Assembly: GCA_041648755.1 (NCBI GenBank) | Contig: JBAZOJ010000002.1 | Location: 1 to 58,288 of the forward strand | From: Candidatus Brocadiia bacterium | Lineage (GTDB): Bacteria; Planctomycetota; B143-G9 | Reading direction: 5' to 3' | DNA length: 58,288 nt | In this document: positions 43,950 to 55,653 of the stretch, one piece after another | Position numbering within the stretch: the stretch's first letter is position 1 | How the letters are laid out: each line of letters starts with the position of its first letter | Made by a program: the position numbers and the translations under genes | Notes under the pieces: generated by a model | What the model saw: only the letters and a program-made list of their open reading frames with translations | What the model was told of the DNA's origin: nothing | The model's database searches: none

Positions 43950-46076
43950 TCAGCGCCCTGCCTGGGATGCGCGAACCTGGAATGGTGCGCTGAACGTGGA
44001 AGCGAGGAGCGCCTCGAGGGCCAGGAAAACAAGGGCGGCAAACAAGAGGACCATCTGGATGTCGGAGAACTTGCCCTCCATTGTGGCCGGAGTGGTGTAG
44101 GGCTTTCGGGCGTCCTCGATCCGGACATTTGGCAAATTCCACACTTTTCTCAGGGCGGCCGGTGGAAGCGGGGTGATGTCGCTTTCTTCCCGCGGAGTGT
44201 TGACGGCTACGTAGGTGGTTCTTCCACCGGGAGCGGTGAATTTGTACCTGCCGGGAATCTCGACGGGACCGTAATCGAGAAGGGCTTTTCCTTCCGCAAC
44301 CCGCGGGAGAAGTTCGACTGCCGTGCTGTCGGGCAAAGTGAGGGTGCATGATCCGGCGGCTTCTGTGATGGTCAGCGGGATTGACACTTTGGCTCCCACC
44401 GTAACATTCGTTTCCTGAGATGATTTTCCCGCCAGGTAGTAGCATAGCTCGTTGGCAAGCGGGGGAAACATGGGTAACGCGACGAGGTTCGTCCATTGTC
44501 CGTCAAAAGTCGATGTCCACAGGAGCGTCTTGCCCCGCCCGCGAGCCCTCTCAATCAACAGTGGACGACCATTGTCGAGTTTTGCCAGCGTTGTCGCATC
44601 AGAGCGGGGACGCGCGTCGAAGTAGCTGAATATCTTCAGCCTCTTCATCCCTGAGCGCCAGAGTCCCGCGAGCCCTTCGAGAGTCTCGGGCATTTTGAGG
44701 TCGGTCAACGAGGCATATCCGTTGCCCTGCGATTCCTGAATTGCAGTCATCTCCGCCGGAAGGACCCCCGCATCCCCGCCGAGCTGCTCATTGAGAGCGG
44801 CAGGACGCATTGCGGGGCCGCACACGATCAGAAGTCCGCCTCCCAGGGAGACAAACGCCTTGATACGTTCGGCCGAAGCCGGTGAAATTGCAGGGGGCTC
44901 AAGGATGACAATTACATCGGCCGGATAGCTCTCCATGCCTTCAAAATCCGAGATCGCAGTCGTCGAAACTGAAATGGTCGAGAATTCGCTGTTGTCGAAA
45001 GGAGCCAGGGCGGCGGCAAGGTAAGACGAAGCCGCCTGGAAACTACCTGCGGATGGGCGACCGTCCACCAGAAGGACATTCACTTTGCGCGACACGTCAG
45101 CAGCGAAGAATCGAATGTCATCGTCAGGAAGGGAATCCGGTGTCATCGAAACCGAATAGCAGACAGAACCTTCTTCTGCCGGTTTCTCCGGGAAGGCCAC
45201 CGAGCTGCCGCCCTCCTTAACGCGCGTTGATCGTGTGGCGATGGCCTCATCCAACCTCTTGAAGGTAACCTGGGATTCCCGCTCGCCCTCGCCTCCCCAC
45301 AGGTTCAGGTGCGCCTTTAGAACGGTTCCAAGACCAGTGGCGAATACGCTGCGGGCCGGTTCGAGGTCCTCCACTGCGGCGTTCTTATCGTCCTGTGCGG
45401 AACAGGTCACGATAGTTATCGGGGCATTTGCCCATATTTCGGAGGCCAGCTTACTGAAAAACGCTTCCGGGCGGTCGTAAGCATTCTGCGCAAAGTCGCT
45501 CACAAGCACAAAATGCCCAACGCACCCGCTTTTATCAGCCAAGCCCCATTCCTGTCTCAGCATGGGGAGAATCAACTGAGGCGAGGTCCCGCGAAAGGAG
45601 GGCTCGATACGGGAGAGTTGCTCCTTGAACTGAGTCGGTGACAGAGCCCGGGATGAAGGCTGAATCGTATCGTCGAACACGGTCAGCTTGAAAAAGTCCC
45701 CGGGCGATGCCGAGTCGGCTTTTGCCCTGAGATAGTCCCGCGCGGCGTCAAAGCGTGTCTTCCCTCTGACAGCAGTGCGCATTGAAAGAGAGCCATCCAG
45801 GAACACGAAGTACATATTTGGCCTGTCGGTTCCCGCGCCGGTCAGCAGCGGGTGAGCAAGAGCCAGGAAGAACGCCAGAAGAGCGAAAGTACGCAGCGAC
45901 AGCAGGATCATCTCCTTGACGCGGATCCTGCGCCGAAGTCGGGCGTAGGCGCGAAGAAGGATGACCATGGCTCCGAAATCCTGCTTGCGATGTCTGCGCC
46001 GGAAAAGCAGATAGATAAGAAGCGGCAGCAGGCAGAACAGCAGCGTGCTAAGCAGTTGCGGGGCACCGAAATGCAT
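43950..46076 (-). CDS. BatA-domain / VWA / glutamine amidotransferase-like membrane protein
   Basis: BatA N-terminus LLPLLIYLLFRRR..DFGAMVIL; VFLDGSLSM MIDAS; DDIRFFA; FVSLGGGLLIVCG; C-terminal TM LFAALVFLALEALL. Confidence 0.85.
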   Translation of the reverse strand: MHFGAPQLLSTLLFCLLPLLIYLLFRRRHRKQDFGAMVILLRAYARLRRRIRVKEMILLSLRTFALLAFFLALAHPLLTGAGTDRPNMYFVFLDGSLSMRTAVRGKTRFDAARDYLRAKADSASPGDFFKLTVFDDTIQPSSRALSPTQFKEQLSRIEPSFRGTSPQLILPMLRQEWGLADKSGCVGHFVLVSDFAQNAYDRPEAFFSKLASEIWANAPITIVTCSAQDDKNAAVEDLEPARSVFATGLGTVLKAHLNLWGGEGERESQVTFKRLDEAIATRSTRVKEGGSSVAFPEKPAEEGSVCYSVSMTPDSLPDDDIRFFAADVSRKVNVLLVDGRPSAGSFQAASSYLAAALAPFDNSEFSTISVSTTAISDFEGMESYPADVIVILEPPAISPASAERIKAFVSLGGGLLIVCGPAMRPAALNEQLGGDAGVLPAEMTAIQESQGNGYASLTDLKMPETLEGLAGLWRSGMKRLKIFSYFDARPRSDATTLAKLDNGRPLLIERARGRGKTLLWTSTFDGQWTNLVALPMFPPLANELCYYLAGKSSQETNVTVGAKVSIPLTITEAAGSCTLTLPDSTAVELLPRVAEGKALLDYGPVEIPGRYKFTAPGGRTTYVAVNTPREESDITPLPPAALRKVWNLPNVRIEDARKPYTTPATMEGKFSDIQMVLLFAALVFLALEALLASTFSAPFQVRASQAGR

Positions 46077-46082
46077 GGCGGT

Positions 46083-46111
46083 ATTCTATTACCTATTCGC
46101 AGGCGGGCCAA
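46083..46111 (-). promoter_or_regulatory. Promoter for the BatA operon, apparently leaderless
   Basis: Minus strand TTGGCC-17 bp-TAGAAT, ATG 6 nt downstream. Confidence 0.55.
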
Positions 46112-46142
46112 ACGAAAACGGCGGGGCCGTGGCCCCGCCGTT
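46110..46142 (-). terminator. Terminator of the cyclophilin gene
   Basis: AACGGCGGGGCC-GT-GGCCCCGCCGTT with a T-rich tail on the minus strand. Confidence 0.75.
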
Positions 46143-46163
46143 GAATTGATGCGAAACTGCAGC

Positions 46164-47207
46164 CTACTTCAGGTACTCGACGCTGAGCTTTATCATCTCA
46201 ACAGGATTGCGAGGCTTGTTGGGAGCATCGGGACGAGTCTGAGTGGCGGCGATCTTCTTGCAGGTATCCAATCCTTCGGTGACTTTGGCGAACACGACAT
46301 AGCGACCATCAAGCGAAGGGATGGGCTCGACGCAGATGTAGAACTGGCTGCCGGCGGAGTTCTTGTCCTGACCGGTGAGGCCCATACCAACTGCGCCTTC
46401 CTCATGCTTGAGTTTGCTTTCCTCGAACGGGATAGTGTATCCGGGACCGCCCGAACCATCGCCGTGGGGATCGCCGCCCTGGATGAGCTTGAAGATCGGG
46501 CGATTCTCGACGCGGTGGAATATCTGGTTGTTGTAGTAGCCCTTTTCCACGAGGGTCAGGAAGTTCTTGCAGGTCTGAGGGGCGTCATCCATGCGCAACC
46601 AGATCAGGAAGCTGCCTTCCCTGGTTTCCACGCGGACACACACGCGGCTGTAGACATTGACGGTTGCCCAGTCGCTGCGAACGACCTTATTATCGGCGAG
46701 CTTGTAGATTGCGCGGACGTAGAACACCCCGCCATCGCCGAAATCGAAGTACTTCTCGAGGTTTGTCAGCGTTCCGCCGTAATAGGAGCCGCTGATCATG
46801 GGCAGCTTGAATTCGGTCCCATCCTGGGGGAAAGCCGCTCCGGTGCGAAGGATGGATGCGCGCTTATCCTCGTCGATCATCTCGACGCTGAAGCACTTGA
46901 ATGCGTTTGAATTGAGAACGACCTCAGCCTTCTCGCCGTTGAGTTCCAGCTTGAAGCCGACATTGACCGGCTCGACCCCGGCTTCGACCTTCTTGAAATT
47001 CAGCTTCCCAACCATTGCGAGGTGAAGTCCGTCGACATCCTGCCCTGTTTCGAGAGCGGGCTTGGGTGTTGGTGTTGGCGTGGGCGTAGGGGTCGGGGCA
47101 ACAATCGTGGGACTCTGGGACACCGGAGGCGTCACGGGATCCTCGGCGAATACGCTCACCGCGAAGCAGACGAAGCAAAGCGTTACCGCGAACAGGGAAT
47201 ACTTCAT
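46164..47207 (-). CDS. Secreted cyclophilin-type peptidyl-prolyl isomerase with an extra N-terminal domain
   Basis: Signal peptide, Pro-Thr linker; C-terminal APQTCKNF, FHRV, IQGGDPHGDGSGGPGY, NSAGSQFYI, LDGRYVVF. Confidence 0.93.
   Translation of the reverse strand: MKYSLFAVTLCFVCFAVSVFAEDPVTPPVSQSPTIVAPTPTPTPTPTPKPALETGQDVDGLHLAMVGKLNFKKVEAGVEPVNVGFKLELNGEKAEVVLNSNAFKCFSVEMIDEDKRASILRTGAAFPQDGTEFKLPMISGSYYGGTLTNLEKYFDFGDGGVFYVRAIYKLADNKVVRSDWATVNVYSRVCVRVETREGSFLIWLRMDDAPQTCKNFLTLVEKGYYNNQIFHRVENRPIFKLIQGGDPHGDGSGGPGYTIPFEESKLKHEEGAVGMGLTGQDKNSAGSQFYICVEPIPSLDGRYVVFAKVTEGLDTCKKIAATQTRPDAPNKPRNPVEMIKLSVEYLK
47062..47097 (-). repeat. Pro-Thr repeat linker
   Basis: Encodes APTPTPTPTPTPKP. 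Confidence 0.6.
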
Positions 47208-47249
47208 TACTGTAAGCTCCTCATATGTACGTACTTCTGGGAACGGGCA

Positions 47250-47277
47250 ATCTTATTCGGCCCTATGTATGTGTCAA
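47250..47277 (-). promoter_or_regulatory. Promoter of the cyclophilin gene
   Basis: Minus strand TTGACA-16 bp-TAAGAT. Confidence 0.7.
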
Positions 47278-47375
47278 CTAAAAATGGCGTCTCTTGGCCC
47301 CGAAGGCGCAGTGCGGGCGGAATCTTGAGAGGGAGTCCGGACCTGCGCGACTTGACAATGCGAGACGTTCTTTGT

Positions 47376-47402
47376 TTGAGGGCTATCAAAAGGCACTATA
47401 AT
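47376..47402 (+). promoter_or_regulatory. Promoter of the HtrA-like three-gene operon
   Basis: TTGAGG-15 bp-TATAAT; RBS GGAGGA before ATG 47441. Confidence 0.6.
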
Positions 47403-47440
47403 CGCTTCAACTGGCGATTTCGCCTCGTGGAGGACTCCAA

Positions 47441-49153
47441 ATGGCACGTAGCCTGTTTTGCGAATGCGGCGCCGTTTACGATGCTGACAAGCTGGCCGAG
47501 GACAGACTCTACAAATGCCGTGAATGCGGCGCGGTTCTCTCCTCGGAGTACGCTGTTGAGGAGGAGCTTCTGGCCATACGGCAGGAAGCTGCCATCCCCA
47601 AGACCGGAATGCTGATAACCGCTATTTTGATCGTTGGGCTCGCCATTATCGGCTTTGCCCTCGCCAAAATGAACGTAGTTGAAAAGGTCCGCACTGATTC
47701 GGAGAAGCAGGAAAAGACAGTCAGCGAATTCGGCCCGAAGCTGGACCAGTGGGAGACCTCCGCGTCCCGGATCCGCGTCGAAGACAAGAGCGAGCAACGC
47801 GCCTCGGAACTGATGGGCGAGGTCTTCGATCGCATCTCGCAGGCCAGAGACAAGGTCTATCCCGCCGTGGTCATGATCGAGTGTGGTGATAACGAGGGCA
47901 GTGGTGGCACCGGCTCCGGTGCTATCTTCATGCCCGATGGCCACGAAGGTGTGGATACCGAAGGCTACATCGTCACCAATTTCCACGTGGTGCAAAACGC
48001 CTTCATACTCGAAGTCATGCTCTCCAATCAGGAAACCAGCGCAGCCGATCTGATCTACGCTGATCCGTTCTGCGATGTCGCAGTAATCAAGCTGAAGTAT
48101 CCGGAGAAGTGCAAGGACATCAAGCCCGCCAAGTTCGCCGACAGCGAAAAAGTGAGAATTGGCGACTTCTGCATGGCAATGGGCGCTCCGCAAGGCCTTG
48201 GTCGTTCGGTATCTATCGGTGTCGTGACTGCACAACACAGGATGCACGCTTCCCAACTGGGCCCCCAGATCTCGCATCGCGAGCATTGCTTCATTCAGAT
48301 GGACGCGCCGATCAACCACGGCAACTCCGGCGGCCCCACGGTCAATCTTAACGGCGAAATCATCGGTATGAACACGCTCGGATTCGATATGTACGGCTTC
48401 GAGAAATTCGCCTACTGCATCTCTTCGAACTACGAACGCGAAATCGCAAATACGATCGTGCGCAACAATTCCCAGAGTCGCACTCCACTGGTCGAGCGCT
48501 CGACCTACGGACTTGAGTTCCTGCCGATGTCAACTATCGGTCGCGCGGAAAGCGACGGGGTTATCGTCTCCTACGTGGCTGACAGCAGCCCCGCATACCA
48601 GATGGGCCTTCGCCCGGGCGACATTATCACCAGGGCGGTCATCGGTGGCAAAGAATACCTCCCCAAGGTTCACTACCCGGAGCAAGCCTATCAGGCATTT
48701 TATGCCTTCCAGTTCATCCCCTTGGGAACTGGCGCCGACGTGACGTGGCACAACTATGTCACCGGTGAAGAGAAGACAGGCTCCATGAGCAGTGCAGGAT
48801 TTGCAGCGGAGAACTTCGACAAGGCCGGATCGTCAGACTGGTTTCTCGGCACCGTAATGACTCCATGTACCACGGCGGATTTGGAGGGCGCCGGATTCGA
48901 GGCTGAGGAAGCCAGCGGATTCGTGATCCAGGACTGGGCAGACAGCGGCTCATCGGTCATCGGCGGAATGCACCTGCGTGATTTTGGCCTCAAGAGAGGC
49001 GACATCATCAGGACTATCGACGGTGTGATTCCCCAGGCTGCCCGGCACATTTACGGCCTCATCGTTTCTCATTTCCAGGGGCGCCCGGATCCGATAGTGT
49101 TCGAGGTTATTCGCGGCAAGGCCAAGATTTACTTCCAATTCGAAGTGCAGTAG
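47441..49153 (+). CDS. Zinc-ribbon/TM/HtrA-like serine protease with PDZ domains, intact catalytic triad
   Basis: CECG...CRECG; TM; TNFHVV (His), CDVAVIK (Asp), GNSGGP (Ser); PDZ SSPAYQMGLRPGDII and GLKRGDII. Confidence 0.93.
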   Translation: MARSLFCECGAVYDADKLAEDRLYKCRECGAVLSSEYAVEEELLAIRQEAAIPKTGMLITAILIVGLAIIGFALAKMNVVEKVRTDSEKQEKTVSEFGPKLDQWETSASRIRVEDKSEQRASELMGEVFDRISQARDKVYPAVVMIECGDNEGSGGTGSGAIFMPDGHEGVDTEGYIVTNFHVVQNAFILEVMLSNQETSAADLIYADPFCDVAVIKLKYPEKCKDIKPAKFADSEKVRIGDFCMAMGAPQGLGRSVSIGVVTAQHRMHASQLGPQISHREHCFIQMDAPINHGNSGGPTVNLNGEIIGMNTLGFDMYGFEKFAYCISSNYEREIANTIVRNNSQSRTPLVERSTYGLEFLPMSTIGRAESDGVIVSYVADSSPAYQMGLRPGDIITRAVIGGKEYLPKVHYPEQAYQAFYAFQFIPLGTGADVTWHNYVTGEEKTGSMSSAGFAAENFDKAGSSDWFLGTVMTPCTTADLEGAGFEAEEASGFVIQDWADSGSSVIGGMHLRDFGLKRGDIIRTIDGVIPQAARHIYGLIVSHFQGRPDPIVFEVIRGKAKIYFQFEVQ

Positions 49154-49161
49154 GTGAAGAT

Positions 49162-50949
49162 ATGGCCAACTTCGTACAATGCAAATGCGGTGAGAAGATA
49201 GCCACTGTCCGGTTTCGCAAGGCCGACTCCGTGGTCTGCCGTAGCTGCGGTCTCATCGTCTATGCCGATGGACACACAGCAACGAAGACCGCGGTGATTG
49301 AGCGCAGGAAGCCGGTCGCAAAGAAGGTCCGCCCTTCGGGCTTCAAGCCGCGTCTGGTGATGCCCGCCCAGTTCCTTGGGCTTGCGCCGATTTTCTATCT
49401 TAACCTTGTTCTCGCGATCGTGGCGGTTGTTGTTCTTATCGCGTACGGTGGTTCGCGCCAGGTCGTATCTGATTCGAAGCCGCGTCCCTACTCCAATAAG
49501 CTCAACGAATGGACGCAGCAGGAAAGCACCATCAATGCGCGTATCAAAGAAGCTGCGACCGTCAAGGTCAACGTCAAGAGCATCATCAACGACATTATGC
49601 TCAACGAGGTCCCAGCTTCCTACAAGAAGACCGTCGGCTCGACGGTCATTATCGAGCCTCAGTCGTATCGCATCGTGAATGGTGAGAGACGCAGTATTGG
49701 GTACGGCAGACCCAGTTCGGGCTTCGTATTCTCCCCCTCCGGCTCAGTATCAGGGGAGGACTTCTATATCATCACGACCTTTGCCGCAGTGGATATGGCG
49801 GACTACGTTACTGTGACTTTCTCCGACATGTCTGTAGCCCGTGGTTCGATCGCGGGGGGCGACCCTGACTCGAACATCGGCGTTGTACGTGTCCCCAAGA
49901 AGTTCCTTGCCAATGCCGAGGAGTATCGGGCGGTGCCGACGACCGACAACGTGTCGCTGGGCGAACCCATACAGACACTGGGCGGAATAGGAATGAACAC
50001 CGGGTTGTCCCTCTATAGAGGAGCCATCTCATTCCTGAAGCGTGCACGGCAGAGCAGGCTCGCAAGCGGACGGCCCTCCGGCAAGTGCAGCGTATTCTAC
50101 CAGACCAACTGCGTAATTAATCCCGGCATGGAGGGCGGTCCCGCCTTCAATGCTCGCGGCGAAATAATCGGTGTCTCGATGTCCTACCTCAGCGAAGACG
50201 ATCTCGGCGCCGAACTCGGCATCTCGTATGAGTATGTGAACGGTGTCAACCTGATCCTTCCCATCGGCTACGCGCTGAAGATCGCCAATGCGATTGTCAA
50301 GGACGGCTATTTCAAGCGCGCGACTATCGGGGTCGAGTTTGAGGTCCTGGATCCGGCTGATCCTGCATCCAGCCTTGTTGTTTCATATGTAGAGCCGGAA
50401 TCCCCTGCCGGGAAGGCAGGCATTGTTCCCGGAGACCGGGTGCTGACCATTGGTGCGACTCCCATTGAGGTCAGGGTAAGCGGAGACATTCCCGCCCTTT
50501 ACCGCACGATCGCCGACCTCAAGACAGATGCGAAAATCGCTCTCAAGTTGCAGCATGCCGGTGCCGAAAGAACCGCCGAGTTGACCCCCATCGAGGCTAC
50601 AGACCCGCAGGACTTCGAGTTCTATTGCGAGGATTGGGGCCTTTCCCTGCGCATTCTCACCCCTCGCGAGGCCGCGAAGAGAGGCTTGGGGGAGACCCGA
50701 GGCTTGTTCGTTTCCAGTATTGACCGCGGAGGACGTGCGGCGGAGGTCAACCTGCGAATCGGCGATATCATCGTCAGCATCGAAGGCAAACTCCCCGTCA
50801 ATCGCGCTGAGCTCGAGGAGCTGTACATCCAGCTAACGTCTGATCAAACCCTGAGGAACGTCTTCTTCAAGGTGATTCGCTCCGGCTACACGCGGTTGTT
50901 CCTTCTGAGGAACGTCAAGAAGATCTCGTCCGGCGCGAACGTCAATTAG
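49162..50949 (+). CDS. Zinc-ribbon/TM/HtrA-like pseudoprotease with two PDZ domains
   Basis: CKCG...CRSCG; TM; triad positions TTFAAV, SNIGVV, PGMEGGP; PDZ SPAGKAGIVPGD, LRIGDII. Confidence 0.88.
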   Translation: MANFVQCKCGEKIATVRFRKADSVVCRSCGLIVYADGHTATKTAVIERRKPVAKKVRPSGFKPRLVMPAQFLGLAPIFYLNLVLAIVAVVVLIAYGGSRQVVSDSKPRPYSNKLNEWTQQESTINARIKEAATVKVNVKSIINDIMLNEVPASYKKTVGSTVIIEPQSYRIVNGERRSIGYGRPSSGFVFSPSGSVSGEDFYIITTFAAVDMADYVTVTFSDMSVARGSIAGGDPDSNIGVVRVPKKFLANAEEYRAVPTTDNVSLGEPIQTLGGIGMNTGLSLYRGAISFLKRARQSRLASGRPSGKCSVFYQTNCVINPGMEGGPAFNARGEIIGVSMSYLSEDDLGAELGISYEYVNGVNLILPIGYALKIANAIVKDGYFKRATIGVEFEVLDPADPASSLVVSYVEPESPAGKAGIVPGDRVLTIGATPIEVRVSGDIPALYRTIADLKTDAKIALKLQHAGAERTAELTPIEATDPQDFEFYCEDWGLSLRILTPREAAKRGLGETRGLFVSSIDRGGRAAEVNLRIGDIIVSIEGKLPVNRAELEELYIQLTSDQTLRNVFFKVIRSGYTRLFLLRNVKKISSGANVN

Positions 50950-50965
50950 CAGTAAGGGGTTTTCG

Positions 50966-53083
50966 ATGAGCAAGATACAAGAATGCAAGTGCGGAGCCAA
51001 GTATAACGTCGAGCGTTTCCAGCCCGGCACGAAGTTCAAATGCAAGGTCTGTGGAGAGATCCTCGGAGTCCCGGTTGCCGAGGCACCCACTCCTATTCCA
51101 ATTCCGGAAACGCCGAAGCCGATTCCCTCGCAGCCGCGCGCCACACCTCCGCGTCCAAGGGCTCCTGAATCTCGTCGCCCGGCGCGTGAAGAAGAAGCCG
51201 AACGGCCGCGTCCCATCCGGCAGCGGCCCGCGCCAGCGCCGGAGGTTCCGGAGCCTGTTGAAGAAGACGCCGAAGTCCCGCGTGCGCGCAGGACTCCTCC
51301 CCCTTCAAGGGAAGAAGCCGTCGAGCAAAGGCGTGAACCCGCTCGCAGGCCGACTCCTCCTCCGGCCGAACCTGAACCGGCTCCGCCTGAGCCTGAGCCG
51401 GAGGAAACAATTGAGGAAATATCCGCGGACGTTCTGCTCCGCAAGGAAGACTACTCCAAGCATAGAGACGAGACTCTGGCAAGGGTGCCGAAATTCCTTC
51501 CCGCATTTCTCATCAACGGCGCCGTTTTCGCGGCTGTTCTCATCGCTGGAATCGTAATGATCGGTGGATTTGCCAAGCCGCAGGTAAACGGCGAGGCAGA
51601 GCGAATTGCCGGAGAATTCAACAAGCGGTCGGAGAAGATTGACGCCACTATGACCGAGAAGCTTCAGGAAGCGATGAGGCTTGGCACGGTGAATAGCGAC
51701 ACGGTGTACAAGGGTGTTCGCGAGAAATTCGCCAAGGCCGCTCATCGCGCATCATTTGGCACAGTTTCCGTTATCAGCGACCTCGACATCTACGATGCAG
51801 GCACCCCCGTCAGAATTCCCTACAAGGGTGGCGGTTTTGCCTTTGTGGTCGATGGCGCGAAGAACTACGAAGGCTACATCGTTACCTGTTACGAGAACAT
51901 CGCCGGGGCACGGTCCGTCAAGGTTCTTGCGTTCGATGGCCGTCAGTACGATGCAAAGATCGTGGCCTATGATGTTCCTTCCAACATTGCCGTCCTGCAG
52001 ATAGATGTCGCCGAACTGAAGAAGAACGGGACAGCGCTTGAGCCCATTGAGTGGGGCGATTCCGACGAAGCCAAGAAGAAGGTCGCTTCATACGTGTTTA
52101 CCTGCGGCTCTCCTTTCGGAATGGACCGTTCAGTGGCCCTTGGAAGCGTTTCCTGCCCTGACCGCTACACCGTGTACTCGATTCGTACGGGTGAAGCGTG
52201 CGGATTCTACAACCAGTTGTTCCAGACCGACGCAGCCGTCAACTGGGGCAGCACGGGCGGCCCGCTTGTCAATCTCGATGGCCAGGTTATCGGAGTCTGT
52301 GTTGCGGGACTTCACAAAGCCTTCGGCCTTACTGACTACAACGGGCTCTACTTCGCAATACACAGCAATTTCGCCCGGAAGATCGCCAACGCTCTGGCGC
52401 GCAACAGCAGAGTGGACCGATCCTACACGGGCATACTTGTCGATTCTCTCAAGGCGCTTGAACTGGATCCCGATTTCAGAGGCGTGGCCGTTGTCGGTGT
52501 CGAGCCCGATTCCCCCGCTGCCAGCTCTGCGCTTTCGGCCGGAGACATTTTCTATGCCGTCTCCTACATGGAGAACAATGCGAAGAAGGAAATCAAGCTG
52601 AACGCCAGGCATACTCCTGACCTGCCCATCATCTACGACGCATTGGCCTCCCTGCCGCCGAATACAGAGGTAACGTTCCTCATCAAGGACAGGACTGGCG
52701 AAAACAAGCCCCCGGTCGTTATCAAGACCGTGCCTCTCCCGAGAGGTGGGTCTGATGTCGTGAACGCCGAGAGGTGGGGAATTGTCGTGTCGCCGGTGTC
52801 CAAGACGACCTCGATGGCTTTTGGCACGCCTGATGGCAAGGGTGTAATGGTGGTTGCCGTCATGGACAATTCGCCAGCTTCCCGCGCCATGATCCAAGTG
52901 GGAACGATTATCCTGGCAATCGACAACAAGTCCATTGACGACATCAAGATCTTCCGCACGCGCTACGATAACCTCCGGGCAGACAGGCGGCGCGAGGTAA
53001 CATTCGACGTCAAGAGGCCGAACGCATTTGGCATGCTTGGCGCGTATGGGAACGACTTCATCAAGATCCTTGTAATCTACTAA
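50966..53083 (+). CDS. Zinc-ribbon/Pro-Glu linker/TM/HtrA-like pseudoprotease with two PDZ domains
   Basis: CKCG...CKVCG; TM; triad positions TCYENI, SNIAVL, WGSTGGP; PDZ DSPAASSALSAGD, NSPASRAMIQVG. Confidence 0.88.
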   Translation: MSKIQECKCGAKYNVERFQPGTKFKCKVCGEILGVPVAEAPTPIPIPETPKPIPSQPRATPPRPRAPESRRPAREEEAERPRPIRQRPAPAPEVPEPVEEDAEVPRARRTPPPSREEAVEQRREPARRPTPPPAEPEPAPPEPEPEETIEEISADVLLRKEDYSKHRDETLARVPKFLPAFLINGAVFAAVLIAGIVMIGGFAKPQVNGEAERIAGEFNKRSEKIDATMTEKLQEAMRLGTVNSDTVYKGVREKFAKAAHRASFGTVSVISDLDIYDAGTPVRIPYKGGGFAFVVDGAKNYEGYIVTCYENIAGARSVKVLAFDGRQYDAKIVAYDVPSNIAVLQIDVAELKKNGTALEPIEWGDSDEAKKKVASYVFTCGSPFGMDRSVALGSVSCPDRYTVYSIRTGEACGFYNQLFQTDAAVNWGSTGGPLVNLDGQVIGVCVAGLHKAFGLTDYNGLYFAIHSNFARKIANALARNSRVDRSYTGILVDSLKALELDPDFRGVAVVGVEPDSPAASSALSAGDIFYAVSYMENNAKKEIKLNARHTPDLPIIYDALASLPPNTEVTFLIKDRTGENKPPVVIKTVPLPRGGSDVVNAERWGIVVSPVSKTTSMAFGTPDGKGVMVVAVMDNSPASRAMIQVGTIILAIDNKSIDDIKIFRTRYDNLRADRRREVTFDVKRPNAFGMLGAYGNDFIKILVIY

Positions 53084-53105
53084 GTCACATGCTCTAATCG
53101 TATGC

Positions 53106-53133
53106 AAGGGGGAGGCAATGCCTCCCCCTTTTT
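53106..53133 (+). terminator. Terminator closing the HtrA operon (may also serve the convergent operon)
   Basis: AAGGGGGAGGCA-A-TGCCTCCCCCTT then TTT. Confidence 0.85.
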
Positions 53134-53140
53134 CTTGATG

Positions 53141-53854
53141 TTACAGGCCGGATATGCGATTGTAGTGCTCGGCCAGCAGTCTCTGAGCGTCAGGGGCGGA
53201 TATCGTCTTAGCGTACTCGCGCGCAAAACTCTCGTCCGGGACACCGGGCGGAGGAAGGGCCATCCGGCGGCGCTCGGAACAGGAATCCAGATATTCGTCT
53301 GTCAGGGCCGATGGGATATCTTCGCAGATTTCGGCAATTCCCGGCGTGACGGCATCAACGCCGAGAATCTTGCGGCCGCGACGGATGATGGCCGAAGCGG
53401 TCTCCTTCCCGCAGCGCCTTTCCAACAAAGCGATGCCCCCTGAGCCAGGCGCAAAGCCAAGCGCGCTTTCGGGGAACCAGAAATAGCTGTGCCGGGAAGC
53501 AACAATGCACTTGCAGGCCAGGGCAAGCTCGAATCCCTTGCCAATGCAATGACCTTCGACGAGGGCAAGCGACGGGAAGGCCGCCTGCGCGATGGAGCAG
53601 AGCACTGCTTGAGCCTTCATTGAGCGCGCGAATGCGCGAGCCTCGTCAAGACCAACCAATTCGCCGAGGTGCGCCCCGCTGCTGAAGGTTCCATTTGCGC
53701 CACGGAACGCGAGCCCTTTGCCGTCGGATTGGCTGAGCGATACTGCCTCCCGGATGCCCTCCTGGACCTCATCGGAAATCGAATTCTGTGTCTCTGGCGA
53801 TTCCAGGAGCAGCACTCGCCATCGGGACAGTTCAGTAAGTTGCGTGTAAGTCAT
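53141..53854 (-). CDS. Enoyl-CoA hydratase/isomerase family protein
   Basis: FSSGAHL, GHCIGKGFELALAC, FPESALGFAPGSGG. Confidence 0.9.
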   Translation of the reverse strand: MTYTQLTELSRWRVLLLESPETQNSISDEVQEGIREAVSLSQSDGKGLAFRGANGTFSSGAHLGELVGLDEARAFARSMKAQAVLCSIAQAAFPSLALVEGHCIGKGFELALACKCIVASRHSYFWFPESALGFAPGSGGIALLERRCGKETASAIIRRGRKILGVDAVTPGIAEICEDIPSALTDEYLDSCSERRRMALPPPGVPDESFAREYAKTISAPDAQRLLAEHYNRISGL

Positions 53855-55653
53855 TTAGGCTGTTCCTCTACATCGATCAAGGCGGCCTGAGAATCGAAGA
53901 AGCCCACTCCGAGCATTCGGCCAACGGTGGCGAGATATGAAACCGGCCTGTGAAGGACGTAAGATTTGGTTTCGCCGTCCGAGAATATCTTGACAATTCC
54001 GTCGTCGAAAGCTACAGCCAGTCTGTCAGAGCCGAGGAAGGCGAGCAGGCTCTCGGCTTTTCCGGACACGAAACTCTTCACAGGTTTTCCTGGAGCCTCC
54101 ATCGAGTAGATCTCGGAAATTCCCCTGCGCGCAACAGCCACGCAATTGCCCTCAACTGCTACGGCCGTGGGTGTCCTTATCCCGTCTCCGTCAAGCGCAG
54201 AGGCAAGCGTTACGAGCGAATTATCCCCGAGCTTGAGGCCCAGGATTTCCCCGGAATTCGAATAGCAGAAGGCGTATTGCGCATCCCGGGAAAGCCCGAA
54301 ATAGCGATACTGTGGTGGTAGCGTGGTAGTCTCCGGCGGGGTTCCCTGTTCAGAAGAGTCGGACCAGCGTATCAGAACGCCGTCAGTTCGGAGAAGCAAG
54401 CTTCCATCCGCGTTCCGTCCAGCGGCTACGATTTTCGAGGCTTCTTCCAACTCCAGCTTACGAATGGTCTTCCCGGTCAAAACGTCAATCTCCGCTGCCC
54501 GCCCGGCAGGAAGAACGCAAAGTGCGCGGCCAATTCCGGCATCCCGGACAACCGTGACTGCGTGCATGAGTGAGAACAAGGGCTTCGGCTCAAATTCCGC
54601 GGAAAGCTCAAAAAAGGAAATGGCTGTTGAACGGCCGATCGCAAGCCACATTGCCCCCTCGCGGAGTCTGCCCGTTGCCATGCAGAGCACAGGTCCGGAC
54701 TTTCCGACGGGTCCCGCGATCAGTTCGCCTTTCCGCGTGAAGACTCGAAGGGAGCCATCCGGGTCGAATCCGGCAATCTTGTCGCCGACAAGGAGAACTC
54801 GAGCGAGATTGGAAGAGGAACTCCAGTTGCTCTCCTCCGCGAGCCCGGTGGAGAAGTCATAGGTTCTTACTGAAGAGTCCGCCATCGAGAACGCGAGGAA
54901 TGAGCCGGACGCGGCCGAGTCGAGGATTCTGGCCGGGCACTCAACACGCCCTTTGGCTTCACCTGTTTCGATGTCGAAGTAGGACAGGCTGGAAGAGGAG
55001 ATGACCGCGACGTATGCCGATTTGCCAGATGTCACAATGTGGCAGCCGTCAACTCTCGCATGCCTGAAGACCTTGCTCCATCCCCGTGCTTTCCCCCGCG
55101 CCCGGATCCAAATTGACTCGGCAAAGGAAACAGCGATATTTCCAGCCGGATCGACCTCAATTGCTCGTACTGACTGTTTCCATCCGCTCTCCACGGTCCT
55201 GCAGGTTCCATCGGCCGGGTTGAATTCGCGGAGTGCTCCAAGTGCAGTGCCACACAACAGGCCCGTTGGGCTGAAGCTGACAGCGGTCGGGCTGTCGTCA
55301 AGAATCGGGTACCGGTTCCGGGTGGTCAGGTCAACCGATAACAGCAGCAGGACGCCATCTTCCGTTGTAAGAGCGACCAACTGTCCGTCGCGTGACACAG
55401 CCAGACCTCCCGTTGATCCGGGTACCGGTGCGAAGCAAAGGCTTTTCCCTGTCGCGAGATCCCACTTCCGTATGAAACGCCGGTCAAGCGTATAAAGGGC
55501 CGTTCCGTCAGGACTTGCACGCACCGCAGATACGGACAGGCCGTTTCTGTATTCCCCGGCGCCGTCGTGCCAATAAGAAGGGGCCTCATCTGCCAGAGCC
55601 AGGCCTGTCAACATGGAGAGAATCAGAATCAGTGCGCCCGTTCCCTTACTCAT
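53851..55653 (-). CDS. Secreted WD40/beta-propeller protein
   Basis: Signal peptide ending ALA; repeats AVRASPDG, LAVSRDG, AVSFSPTG, AIEVDPAG, FGLSRDA. Confidence 0.8.
   Translation of the reverse strand: MSKGTGALILILSMLTGLALADEAPSYWHDGAGEYRNGLSVSAVRASPDGTALYTLDRRFIRKWDLATGKSLCFAPVPGSTGGLAVSRDGQLVALTTEDGVLLLLSVDLTTRNRYPILDDSPTAVSFSPTGLLCGTALGALREFNPADGTCRTVESGWKQSVRAIEVDPAGNIAVSFAESIWIRARGKARGWSKVFRHARVDGCHIVTSGKSAYVAVISSSSLSYFDIETGEAKGRVECPARILDSAASGSFLAFSMADSSVRTYDFSTGLAEESNWSSSSNLARVLLVGDKIAGFDPDGSLRVFTRKGELIAGPVGKSGPVLCMATGRLREGAMWLAIGRSTAISFFELSAEFEPKPLFSLMHAVTVVRDAGIGRALCVLPAGRAAEIDVLTGKTIRKLELEEASKIVAAGRNADGSLLLRTDGVLIRWSDSSEQGTPPETTTLPPQYRYFGLSRDAQYAFCYSNSGEILGLKLGDNSLVTLASALDGDGIRTPTAVAVEGNCVAVARRGISEIYSMEAPGKPVKSFVSGKAESLLAFLGSDRLAVAFDDGIVKIFSDGETKSYVLHRPVSYLATVGRMLGVGFFDSQAALIDVEEQPK

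Follow-up and report, generated by a model that had tools for sequence, protein, structure and literature searches.

Why would a bacterium keep two catalytically dead HtrA paralogs directly beside a live one? This question is raised by a locus of a Candidatus Brocadiia bacterium (Planctomycetota; B143-G9), located on contig JBAZOJ010000002.1 of assembly GCA_041648755.1; the window, that is the whole stretch of DNA that was analyzed, comprises 58,288 nucleotides (nt; positions 1 to 58,288 of the forward strand). Its region 47441-53083 consists of three co-directional open reading frames (ORFs) on the + strand, here named g1, g2 and g3, which are separated by gaps of 8 and 16 bp, occupy two different reading frames and contain zero frameshifts and zero internal stops. 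g1 encodes an HtrA protease with an intact catalytic triad, while g2 and g3 encode two different pseudoproteases. With moderate confidence, we favor the view that the trio works as one joint module, with g2 and g3 serving g1 as non-catalytic partners.

Catalytic positions were assigned from a residue-by-residue HMMER alignment to solved HtrA chains and from an independent hmmalign read-out. Aligned to DegP, the triad of g1 is intact, with His182 in TNFHVV (47984-47986), Asp212 in DVAVIK (48074-48076) and Ser296 in GNSGGP (48326-48328). The corresponding positions of g2 are occupied by Ala208 (49783-49785), Asn238 (49873-49875) and Glu324 (50131-50133), the motifs TTFAAV, SNIGVV and GMEGGP lining up with TNNHVI, TDVAVL and GNSGGP of MucD. 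g3 carries Glu310 (51893-51895), Asn340 (51983-51985) and Thr430 (52253-52255), its motifs TCYENI, SNIAVL and GSTGGP lining up with TNNHVI, SDLAVI and GNSGGA of H. pylori HtrA. At chymotrypsin positions 192-195, g2 reads Pro/Gly/Met/Glu; g3 has Trp427 (52244-52246) at position 192 and retains Gly428 at position 193, part of the oxyanion hole. Because they lack the His-Asp-Ser triad, g2 and g3 are considered homologs with the HtrA fold and not enzymes of the HtrA family (MEROPS S1C). The triads read in the first-pass annotation of the window (H/D/S, A/N/E and E/N/T) thus proved correct in every residue, and its description of three clustered, full-length and unbroken paralogs is borne out by the ORF coordinates, as is its domain assignment (zinc ribbon, transmembrane helix, stalk, trypsin-like and PDZ domains in all three) by the cysteine pattern, hydrophobicity and Pfam matches and, for g2 and g3, by AlphaFold2 (AF2) models.

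Pfam Trypsin_2 is matched by g1, g2 and g3 with E values of 1.9e-23, 8.7e-14 and 4e-21, respectively, and phmmer searches against the PDB lead to DegP/MucD/HtrA at E 1e-37, 3e-20 and 2e-28. PDZ families (PDZ_2, PDZ_6, PDZ) are found in all three proteins, with only part of PDZ1 scoring in Pfam in the case of g1. Scores against the NCBIfam Do-family model TIGR02037 are 188, 121 and 191 bits, all below the cut-off of 416, active g1 included. The AF2 model of g3 has a mean predicted local distance difference test (pLDDT) score of 76.5, with 85-97 in the protease domain, and shows N-terminal β-hairpins, a disordered Pro-rich linker of ~130 aa, a transmembrane helix (178-200) and stalk helices (209-265). 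The g2 model (pLDDT 79.2, predicted template modeling score 0.71) likewise contains N-terminal β-hairpins, a transmembrane helix and stalk helices, and within its protease domain modeling was poor only for residues 344-360, an L2-region insert specific to g2. Two PDZ-like β/α units are visible in both models, and Foldseek matches both to DegP/DegQ (E ~1e-27 to 1e-28, probability 1.00).

Each of the three proteins contains Cys7, Cys9, Cys26 and Cys29 (C-x-C-x16-C-x2-C), a Cys4 zinc ribbon for which family searches returned sub-threshold matches only (ADK_lid, Zn_ribbon_4, S27e). One strongly hydrophobic segment follows in each (g1 55-75, g2 69-95, g3 174-200). Since no signal peptide is present, the N-termini carry a Cys4 ribbon and basic residues precede the helix, the proteins are likely type-II anchored, with a cytoplasmic N-terminus and a periplasmic protease-PDZ-PDZ portion. 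The transmembrane helices of g2 and g3 each contain an Asn that is invariant across orthologs (g2 Asn81, 49402-49404; g3 Asn184, 51515-51517), while that of g1 has none; polar residues within transmembrane helices often promote helix association. The zinc ribbon of g2 (residues 1-35, window 49162-49266) is confined to the source genus. g2 orthologs of three other lineages begin with MSARR or MARRR just ahead of the transmembrane helix, leaving no room upstream, and AF2 confidence for the ribbon is 54-66 in g2 vs 75-86 in g3. Either a single loss removed the g2 ribbon from the sister lineages, or the ribbon is in the process of disappearing.

The class that holds the source genome comprises four species genomes, all genomes considered here being metagenome-assembled genomes (MAGs) or metagenome contigs. 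The trio is encoded, with gene order and live/dead/dead pattern unchanged, in three of the four class genomes (the source genome, G000; G003, 98% complete; and G001), the orthologs sharing 42-54% identity across three genera; conservation of the operon as a trio had been named beforehand as a check on the heterotrimer idea, which survives it. The trio is also contiguous in four further assemblies of the G001 genus, with gaps of 11 bp, and the ORFs are full-length and intact in every assembly carrying it. A fourth lineage, represented by short metagenome contigs, shows the peptidyl-prolyl isomerase (PPIase) gene that adjoins the trio, an active g1 (TNQHV, DVAVIK, GNSGGP) and a g2 start 8 bp past the g1 stop. 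The remaining class genome, G002 (a 77% complete MAG), has the PPIase ortholog and a g1 cut to its first 102 residues; a search of this genome did not find g2 or g3. The g1 remnant (L093:930-1268, - strand; G002:C8) is a 112-aa ORF with zinc ribbon and transmembrane helix, 44% identical over residues 1-102, that adjoins the PPIase ortholog and is followed by unrelated sequence, with a 230-aa ORF at the contig end. This looks like a loss of the whole trio by replacement, and the presence of the trio looks all-or-none.

When g3 was run with HMMER against the full set of 1.84 billion representative proteins, only one other g3 cluster emerged (P0038, E 2.8e-201, E/N/T kept), below which scores fall to ordinary H/D/S HtrAs at E 1e-47. 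Searches with g1 and g2 among 5.8 billion proteins, together with genome searches at contig, order and class level, located members of the family in no lineage but this one. Every g1 ortholog has H/D/S and every g3 ortholog E/N/T, the latter embedded in invariant runs of 11 (TCYENIAGARS, Glu310) and 10 residues (NWGSTGGPLV, Thr430), so that the former active-site region is the most conserved part of g3. In g2 orthologs, the His position is filled by A/N/D, the Asp position by Asn without exception and the Ser position by E/E/D. The loop equivalent to L3 is invariant across genera at 16 of 22 positions in g3 (396-417) vs 5 of 22 in g1 and 6 of 21 in g2, the g3 protease domain as a whole reaching 55%.

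Between genera, non-synonymous divergence (dN) is 0.34-0.50 for g1, 0.44-0.59 for g2 and 0.37-0.46 for g3. Since synonymous divergence (dS) is saturated at this distance (proportion of synonymous differences, pS, 0.62-0.83), dN/dS was taken from a within-genus pair (dS 0.13-0.21), which yields 0.104 for g1, 0.090 for g2 and 0.085 for g3, the neighboring PPIase gene being at 0.031. With unsaturated ratios of ~0.09, the dead copies are not decaying: g2 and g3 are functional genes under purifying selection as strong as that on g1, and neutral evolution of these two genes, named beforehand as a finding that would count against the heterotrimer, is not seen. Within species, codon differences in g3 amount to 12 synonymous vs 1 non-synonymous in the first species and to 28 vs 0 in the second, where the zero arises by construction because the set was retrieved by exact match to the g3 protein. 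Such counts are biased for the look-up gene, which is g2 in the first set and g3 in the second, and the sets were used mainly for the other genes.

Maximum-likelihood trees recover each ortholog group as monophyletic (100/100) with an identical inner topology, (window, (G003, G001 genus)), which indicates that the trio was co-inherited. The stems of all three groups, active g1 included, are 1.3-2.0 substitutions per site long; the relation among the three groups is a polytomy, and the approximately unbiased (AU) test does not reject a clade of all nine proteins (p 0.29). The best non-self matches of the g2 and g3 protease domains, ahead of any dead domain, are active zinc-ribbon HtrAs from other Planctomycetota. 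These are encoded by one gene each in G026 (L074:1454-3430, +) and G040 (L079:1736-3922, +), have an architecture like that of g3, consisting of a zinc ribbon, a Pro-rich linker, a transmembrane helix, a stalk, the protease and two PDZ domains, and keep H/D/S intact. The ancestral form was probably a single active zinc-ribbon HtrA of this type. The trio itself is probably a vertically inherited, lineage-restricted system that would have arisen by triplication of an anchored active HtrA in the class ancestor, with catalysis lost in two of the copies.

Several known systems resemble the trio in part. DegS of E. coli is an N-terminally membrane-anchored, periplasm-facing HtrA trimer activated by PDZ-bound peptides through inter-subunit loop relays, and engineered mixed DegS trimers show activation in trans. 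Unlike the trio, natural DegS is homotrimeric: all three of its sites are active, and its subunits have one PDZ domain each and no zinc ribbon. ClpP/ClpR and the proteasome β subunits illustrate how a self-assembling subunit can be duplicated while some copies that lost catalysis stay obligate ring members. As would be expected under a ClpP/R-like logic, the dead copies of the trio are co-conserved and under purifying selection; fold and symmetry differ, however, and assembly has been shown experimentally in those systems, whereas the trio is known from sequence.

Closer in fold is the MamE/MamO pair, an active HtrA encoded together with a membrane-bound HtrA-derived pseudoprotease that promotes proteolysis non-catalytically, and pseudo-HtrAs have been reported to arise repeatedly after duplication (PMC4794232). 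MamO shares with g3 a Thr at the nucleophile position (195) and a cleft-blocking Trp at 192, corresponding to Thr430 and Trp427. It differs from the trio proteins in keeping His and Asp, in its non-Gly residue at 193, its di-His metal site, its fused TauE transporter domain and its role in biomineralization; the trio in turn has two different dead paralogs, N-terminal zinc-ribbon anchors and two PDZ domains per protein. No Pfam match to TauE was found in g1, g2 or g3, and the NCBIfam MamO model NF040961 scores 31 bits with g3 against a cut-off of 800 and does not match g2. PflC of the Campylobacter jejuni flagellar motor has, like g2 and g3, a protease-PDZ-PDZ arrangement that has lost its triad (Asp to Asn) and is kept for a non-catalytic role; it is a soluble, lattice-forming scaffold with an atrophied active-site region, the very region that is best conserved in g3 (PMC12222027). 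Plant DEG7 and fungal Nma111 combine an active and a degenerate HtrA protease domain in one assembly, the dead domain having a structural function in trimerization, but they do so within one eukaryotic chain at a live-to-dead ratio of 1:1, as homotrimers of the fusion (PMC3473262). The trio, by contrast, consists of three separate bacterial ORFs, each with its own stop, at a ratio of 1:2, all of them membrane-anchored. Finally, chloroplast Deg5-Deg8 resembles the assembly proposed below in that HtrA paralogs form a defined hetero-oligomer, called the only known one among Deg proteins in a review, although both of its subunits are catalytically competent and it is built from two homotrimers rather than from mixed trimers (PMC4877387).

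How a joint module might work can be outlined from HtrA allostery. Within HtrA trimers such as DegS and DegP, peptide binding at the PDZ domain and at sensor loop L3 of one subunit causes loops LD, L1 and L2 of the adjacent subunit to rearrange. Conservation of the L3-equivalent loop in g3, a protein that has no catalytic site of its own to control, thus suggests signaling to another subunit. The trio would act together as one module for envelope protein quality control or regulated proteolysis, in which g2 and g3 may bind unfolded or C-terminal peptide signals via their PDZ domains and their retained, blocked clefts, and the signal would pass to the single g1 active site by the inter-subunit loop relay from L3 to LD*/L1*/L2*. 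A mixed trimer on the membrane would be the simplest physical form, and the invariant Asn residues of the g2 and g3 transmembrane helices (N81 and N184) may help its assembly. Engineered HtrA2 heterotrimers show trans PDZ-protease crosstalk (bioRxiv 10.1101/2021.10.04.462974), so that regulation by neighboring subunits is feasible even where a trimer has a reduced number of active sites. Besides the conserved gene order and triad pattern, the purifying selection, the co-inheritance and the apparently joint loss, it is this crosstalk, together with the conserved g3 loop, the MamO-like features of g3 and the invariant transmembrane Asn residues, that makes us favor the joint module. The gaps of 8-16 bp indicate co-expression, and the divergent periplasmic PPIase neighbor fits an envelope-folding role. 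Reasoning on the trimer interface from the aromatic lock residues of HtrA1/HtrA2 gave no clear signal and was not used.

The boldest form of this proposal, which had already been raised in the first-pass annotation, is an obligate asymmetric 1:1:1 A-B-C heterotrimer on the inner membrane with a single active site. Judged from the protein sequences, it is a tentative candidate that we hold to be rather less likely true than false. Two differently specialized dead subunits, each sensing through its own PDZ pair and blocked cleft, would gate g1 in trans, with g3 supplying a MamO-like Trp192/Thr195 cleft and the almost invariant L3 loop. If it exists, it would be the first natural mixed HtrA trimer. 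Together with the soluble live-plus-dead sets described below, some of them fused in one chain, it would mean that the pattern of live and dead HtrA domains arose at least twice in Planctomycetota.

The most serious rival to the joint module holds that g2 and g3 form separate homotrimers with independent non-proteolytic jobs and have only the promoter in common with g1. They might then serve as membrane-tethered holdase chaperones, as peptide sensors signaling to the cytoplasm via their zinc ribbons or as structural scaffolds. Precedents for such independence exist: MamO binds metal and promotes MamE without detected contact (PMC4794232), PflC is a structural lattice protein (PMC12222027), the dead domain of Deg7 trimerizes with itself (PMC3473262) and Deg5/Deg8 hetero-oligomers are assembled from homotrimers (PMC4877387). 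g2 and g3 are also only 24% identical and have different chemistry at the former active site, suggesting different jobs. However, the trio was co-inherited in fixed order and apparently lost together, its short gaps point to co-expression, and the high conservation of the L3-equivalent loop in g3 is not what independent homotrimers would lead one to expect. With all three proteins tethered to one and the same membrane, face-to-face stacking of homotrimers as in Deg5/Deg8 would, moreover, probably meet steric difficulties. On this evidence we regard separate homotrimers as less probable than the joint module, though still well conceivable.

Residual catalysis is far less probable. According to this idea, g2, g3 or both would have stayed hydrolytic by means of non-canonical residues; in g3, for instance, Thr430 or Ser429 might act with Glu310 as base. 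This would accord with the invariance of E/N/T in every g3 ortholog and with the retention of Gly428 (193), unlike in MamO. Yet the exchange of Asp for Asn abolishes the charge relay, and MamO, which also has Thr at the nucleophile position, is inactive, its Trp192, common to g3, physically blocking productive substrate binding. For g2, the variation of the His position among A/N/D between genera argues in the same direction. We know of no chymotrypsin-fold protease that works without His57. Finally, the possibility that g2 and g3 are decaying duplicates, or that ordinary divergence was misread by chance, can draw on the long branches of all three groups and on Do-family scores far under the cut-off, but its probability is close to nil, neutral decay being ruled out by dN/dS and the intact full-length frames in every assembly, along with confident AF2 folds and a substitution pattern kept at 42-54% identity.

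Several points weigh against the joint module itself. The all-or-none loss rests on the single incomplete MAG, G002 (77%), with the remnant near a contig end. The whole neighborhood is syntenic across the lineage (BatA/VWA, PPIase, ECH, β-propeller, ICMT, ParAB), so that conserved adjacency alone is weak evidence of coupling, and co-evolution statistics are not possible because only 3-4 lineages exist. No natural fusion of the three paralogs was found in the g3 scan of 1.84 billion proteins or in the searches of 5.8 billion. The best-studied parallel, in which MamO promotes MamE, works without detectable contact between the two (PMC4794232). Since other genera do without a zinc ribbon in g2, the N-termini of the trio are also not a fixed triplet.

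The features of the locus are collected in Table 1. The first-pass annotation had placed the three genes between one promoter and one terminator. The terminator is supported by a hairpin that begins 23 nt past the g3 stop and is followed 3' by the T-run TTTTCTT; the promoter stands only in part, as a TATAAT box lacking a canonically spaced -35 element. A promoter scan called no sigma-70-like site upstream of the trio on the + strand, and missed the TATAAT box because its -35 spacing is non-canonical. TTGAGG, at a spacing of 15 nt, could serve as its -35 element, as could a perfect TTGACA at 47352-47357, 39 nt away. This latter separation is too long for one sigma-70 promoter and may reflect two promoters or a non-canonical one. 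Directly 5' of the g1 ATG lies the ribosome-binding site GGAGGA, and purine-rich ribosome-binding sites precede all three starts. The PPIase gene and the trio have a 233-bp intergenic region in common. No Rfam match was found within 46000-54000.

Table 1. Features of the HtrA trio locus, in coordinates of the window.
Feature	Position	Strand	Description
Exported cyclophilin-type PPIase gene, divergent	46164..47207	-	syntenic in all lineages
Candidate -10 box, perfect TATAAT	47397..47402	+	38 nt 5' of g1 ATG
g1, active membrane-anchored HtrA	47441..49153	+	570 aa; protease domain 137-345, then two PDZ domains
g2, HtrA pseudoprotease	49162..50949	+	595 aa; trypsin-fold domain and two PDZ domains
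g3, HtrA pseudoprotease	50966..53083	+	705 aa; trypsin-fold domain and two PDZ domains
Intrinsic-terminator-like hairpin closing the three-gene unit	53106..53130	+	11-bp stem, 8 G-C pairs, 3-nt loop

The trio is not the only HtrA system of its host. The source genome encodes three further canonical H/D/S HtrAs, one with a lipoprotein-type signal, one with a plain signal peptide and one whose N-terminus is cut by a contig end. Ordinary periplasmic quality control thus appears to be covered by other HtrAs, and with these three serving housekeeping, the trio is an extra, specialized set. All four class genomes encode a tandem HtrA pair (G000 C335:3-2587; G003:C16; G001:C60; G002:C20), of which both copies in G000 have the canonical H/D/S triad, one of them evolving fast (end branch ~2.1). 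A further DegQ-like gene occurs in each of G000, G001 and G003, the G000 copy (C20) carrying a lipoprotein-type signal.

Combinations of live and dead HtrA domains were also encountered elsewhere. P0139 (L071:901-3270; Logan SRR22388333, SRR22387932) joins three trypsin-like domains in tandem and one PDZ domain in a single chain of 789 aa, the triad positions reading R/D/I in domain 1, S/N/P in domain 2 and canonical H/D/S in domain 3. It thus combines two dead domains and one live domain covalently and may represent an intramolecular pseudo-trimer; a search of 5.8 billion proteins returned no homolog over its full length. Another Planctomycetota family (L091; G010:C30; 1944-3194 and 3194-5107, both genes on the - strand) encodes a 417-aa canonical HtrA and, directly after it, with one base common to stop and start, a 638-aa ORF whose two protease domains are both degenerate (T/E/D and -/Q/S); an ortholog of this dead two-domain ORF is absent from the source class. 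One ORF with two dead protease domains is found at L092 (G038:C104). That the trio and these soluble Planctomycetota sets (L091, L092, P0139) are the same system was considered and rejected, no specific affinity having been found. A lone 490-aa HtrA-like protein (L085:2505-3977, - strand; G012:C50) keeps His and Asp and has Glu in place of Ser, in PEMEGGP vs PGMEGGP of g2. Its grouping with g2 in the tree was flagged as long-branch attraction, and the gene adjoins two B12-binding radical-SAM genes, an unrelated context.

As MamE/MamO, PflC and eukaryotic Deg7 have been described, the general kind of system is already known. The remark in the first-pass annotation that no described bacterial example was known accordingly needs correction for HtrA pseudoproteases as such, MamO and PflC being bacterial. 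Searches of the open-access full-text literature yielded neither a natural HtrA heterotrimer nor a one-live-two-dead operon, nor any HtrA pseudoproteases in Planctomycetes or a zinc-ribbon-anchored HtrA. What is new here is the fixed combination of a live paralog with two dead ones that differ from each other, all with zinc-ribbon N-terminal membrane anchors and encoded in an operon conserved under strong selection.

HtrA is a standard model of allosteric, oligomer-based protease control, and earlier work has dealt with homotrimers or artificially mixed trimers. A natural live-plus-two-dead set, if true, would offer a ready test bed for the number of active sites and of sensors that an HtrA trimer requires. 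The path of signals from subunit to subunit could be followed in it as well, as could the evolution of a homomer into a heteromer containing pseudo-enzyme subunits, a change that also took place in ClpP/R and proteasomes. The trio proteins are small enough for heterologous co-expression and hence directly testable. Should the dead copies instead act alone, they would add two classes to the HtrA-derived pseudoenzymes, both new and membrane-tethered, and one of the two would converge on the cleft design of MamO.

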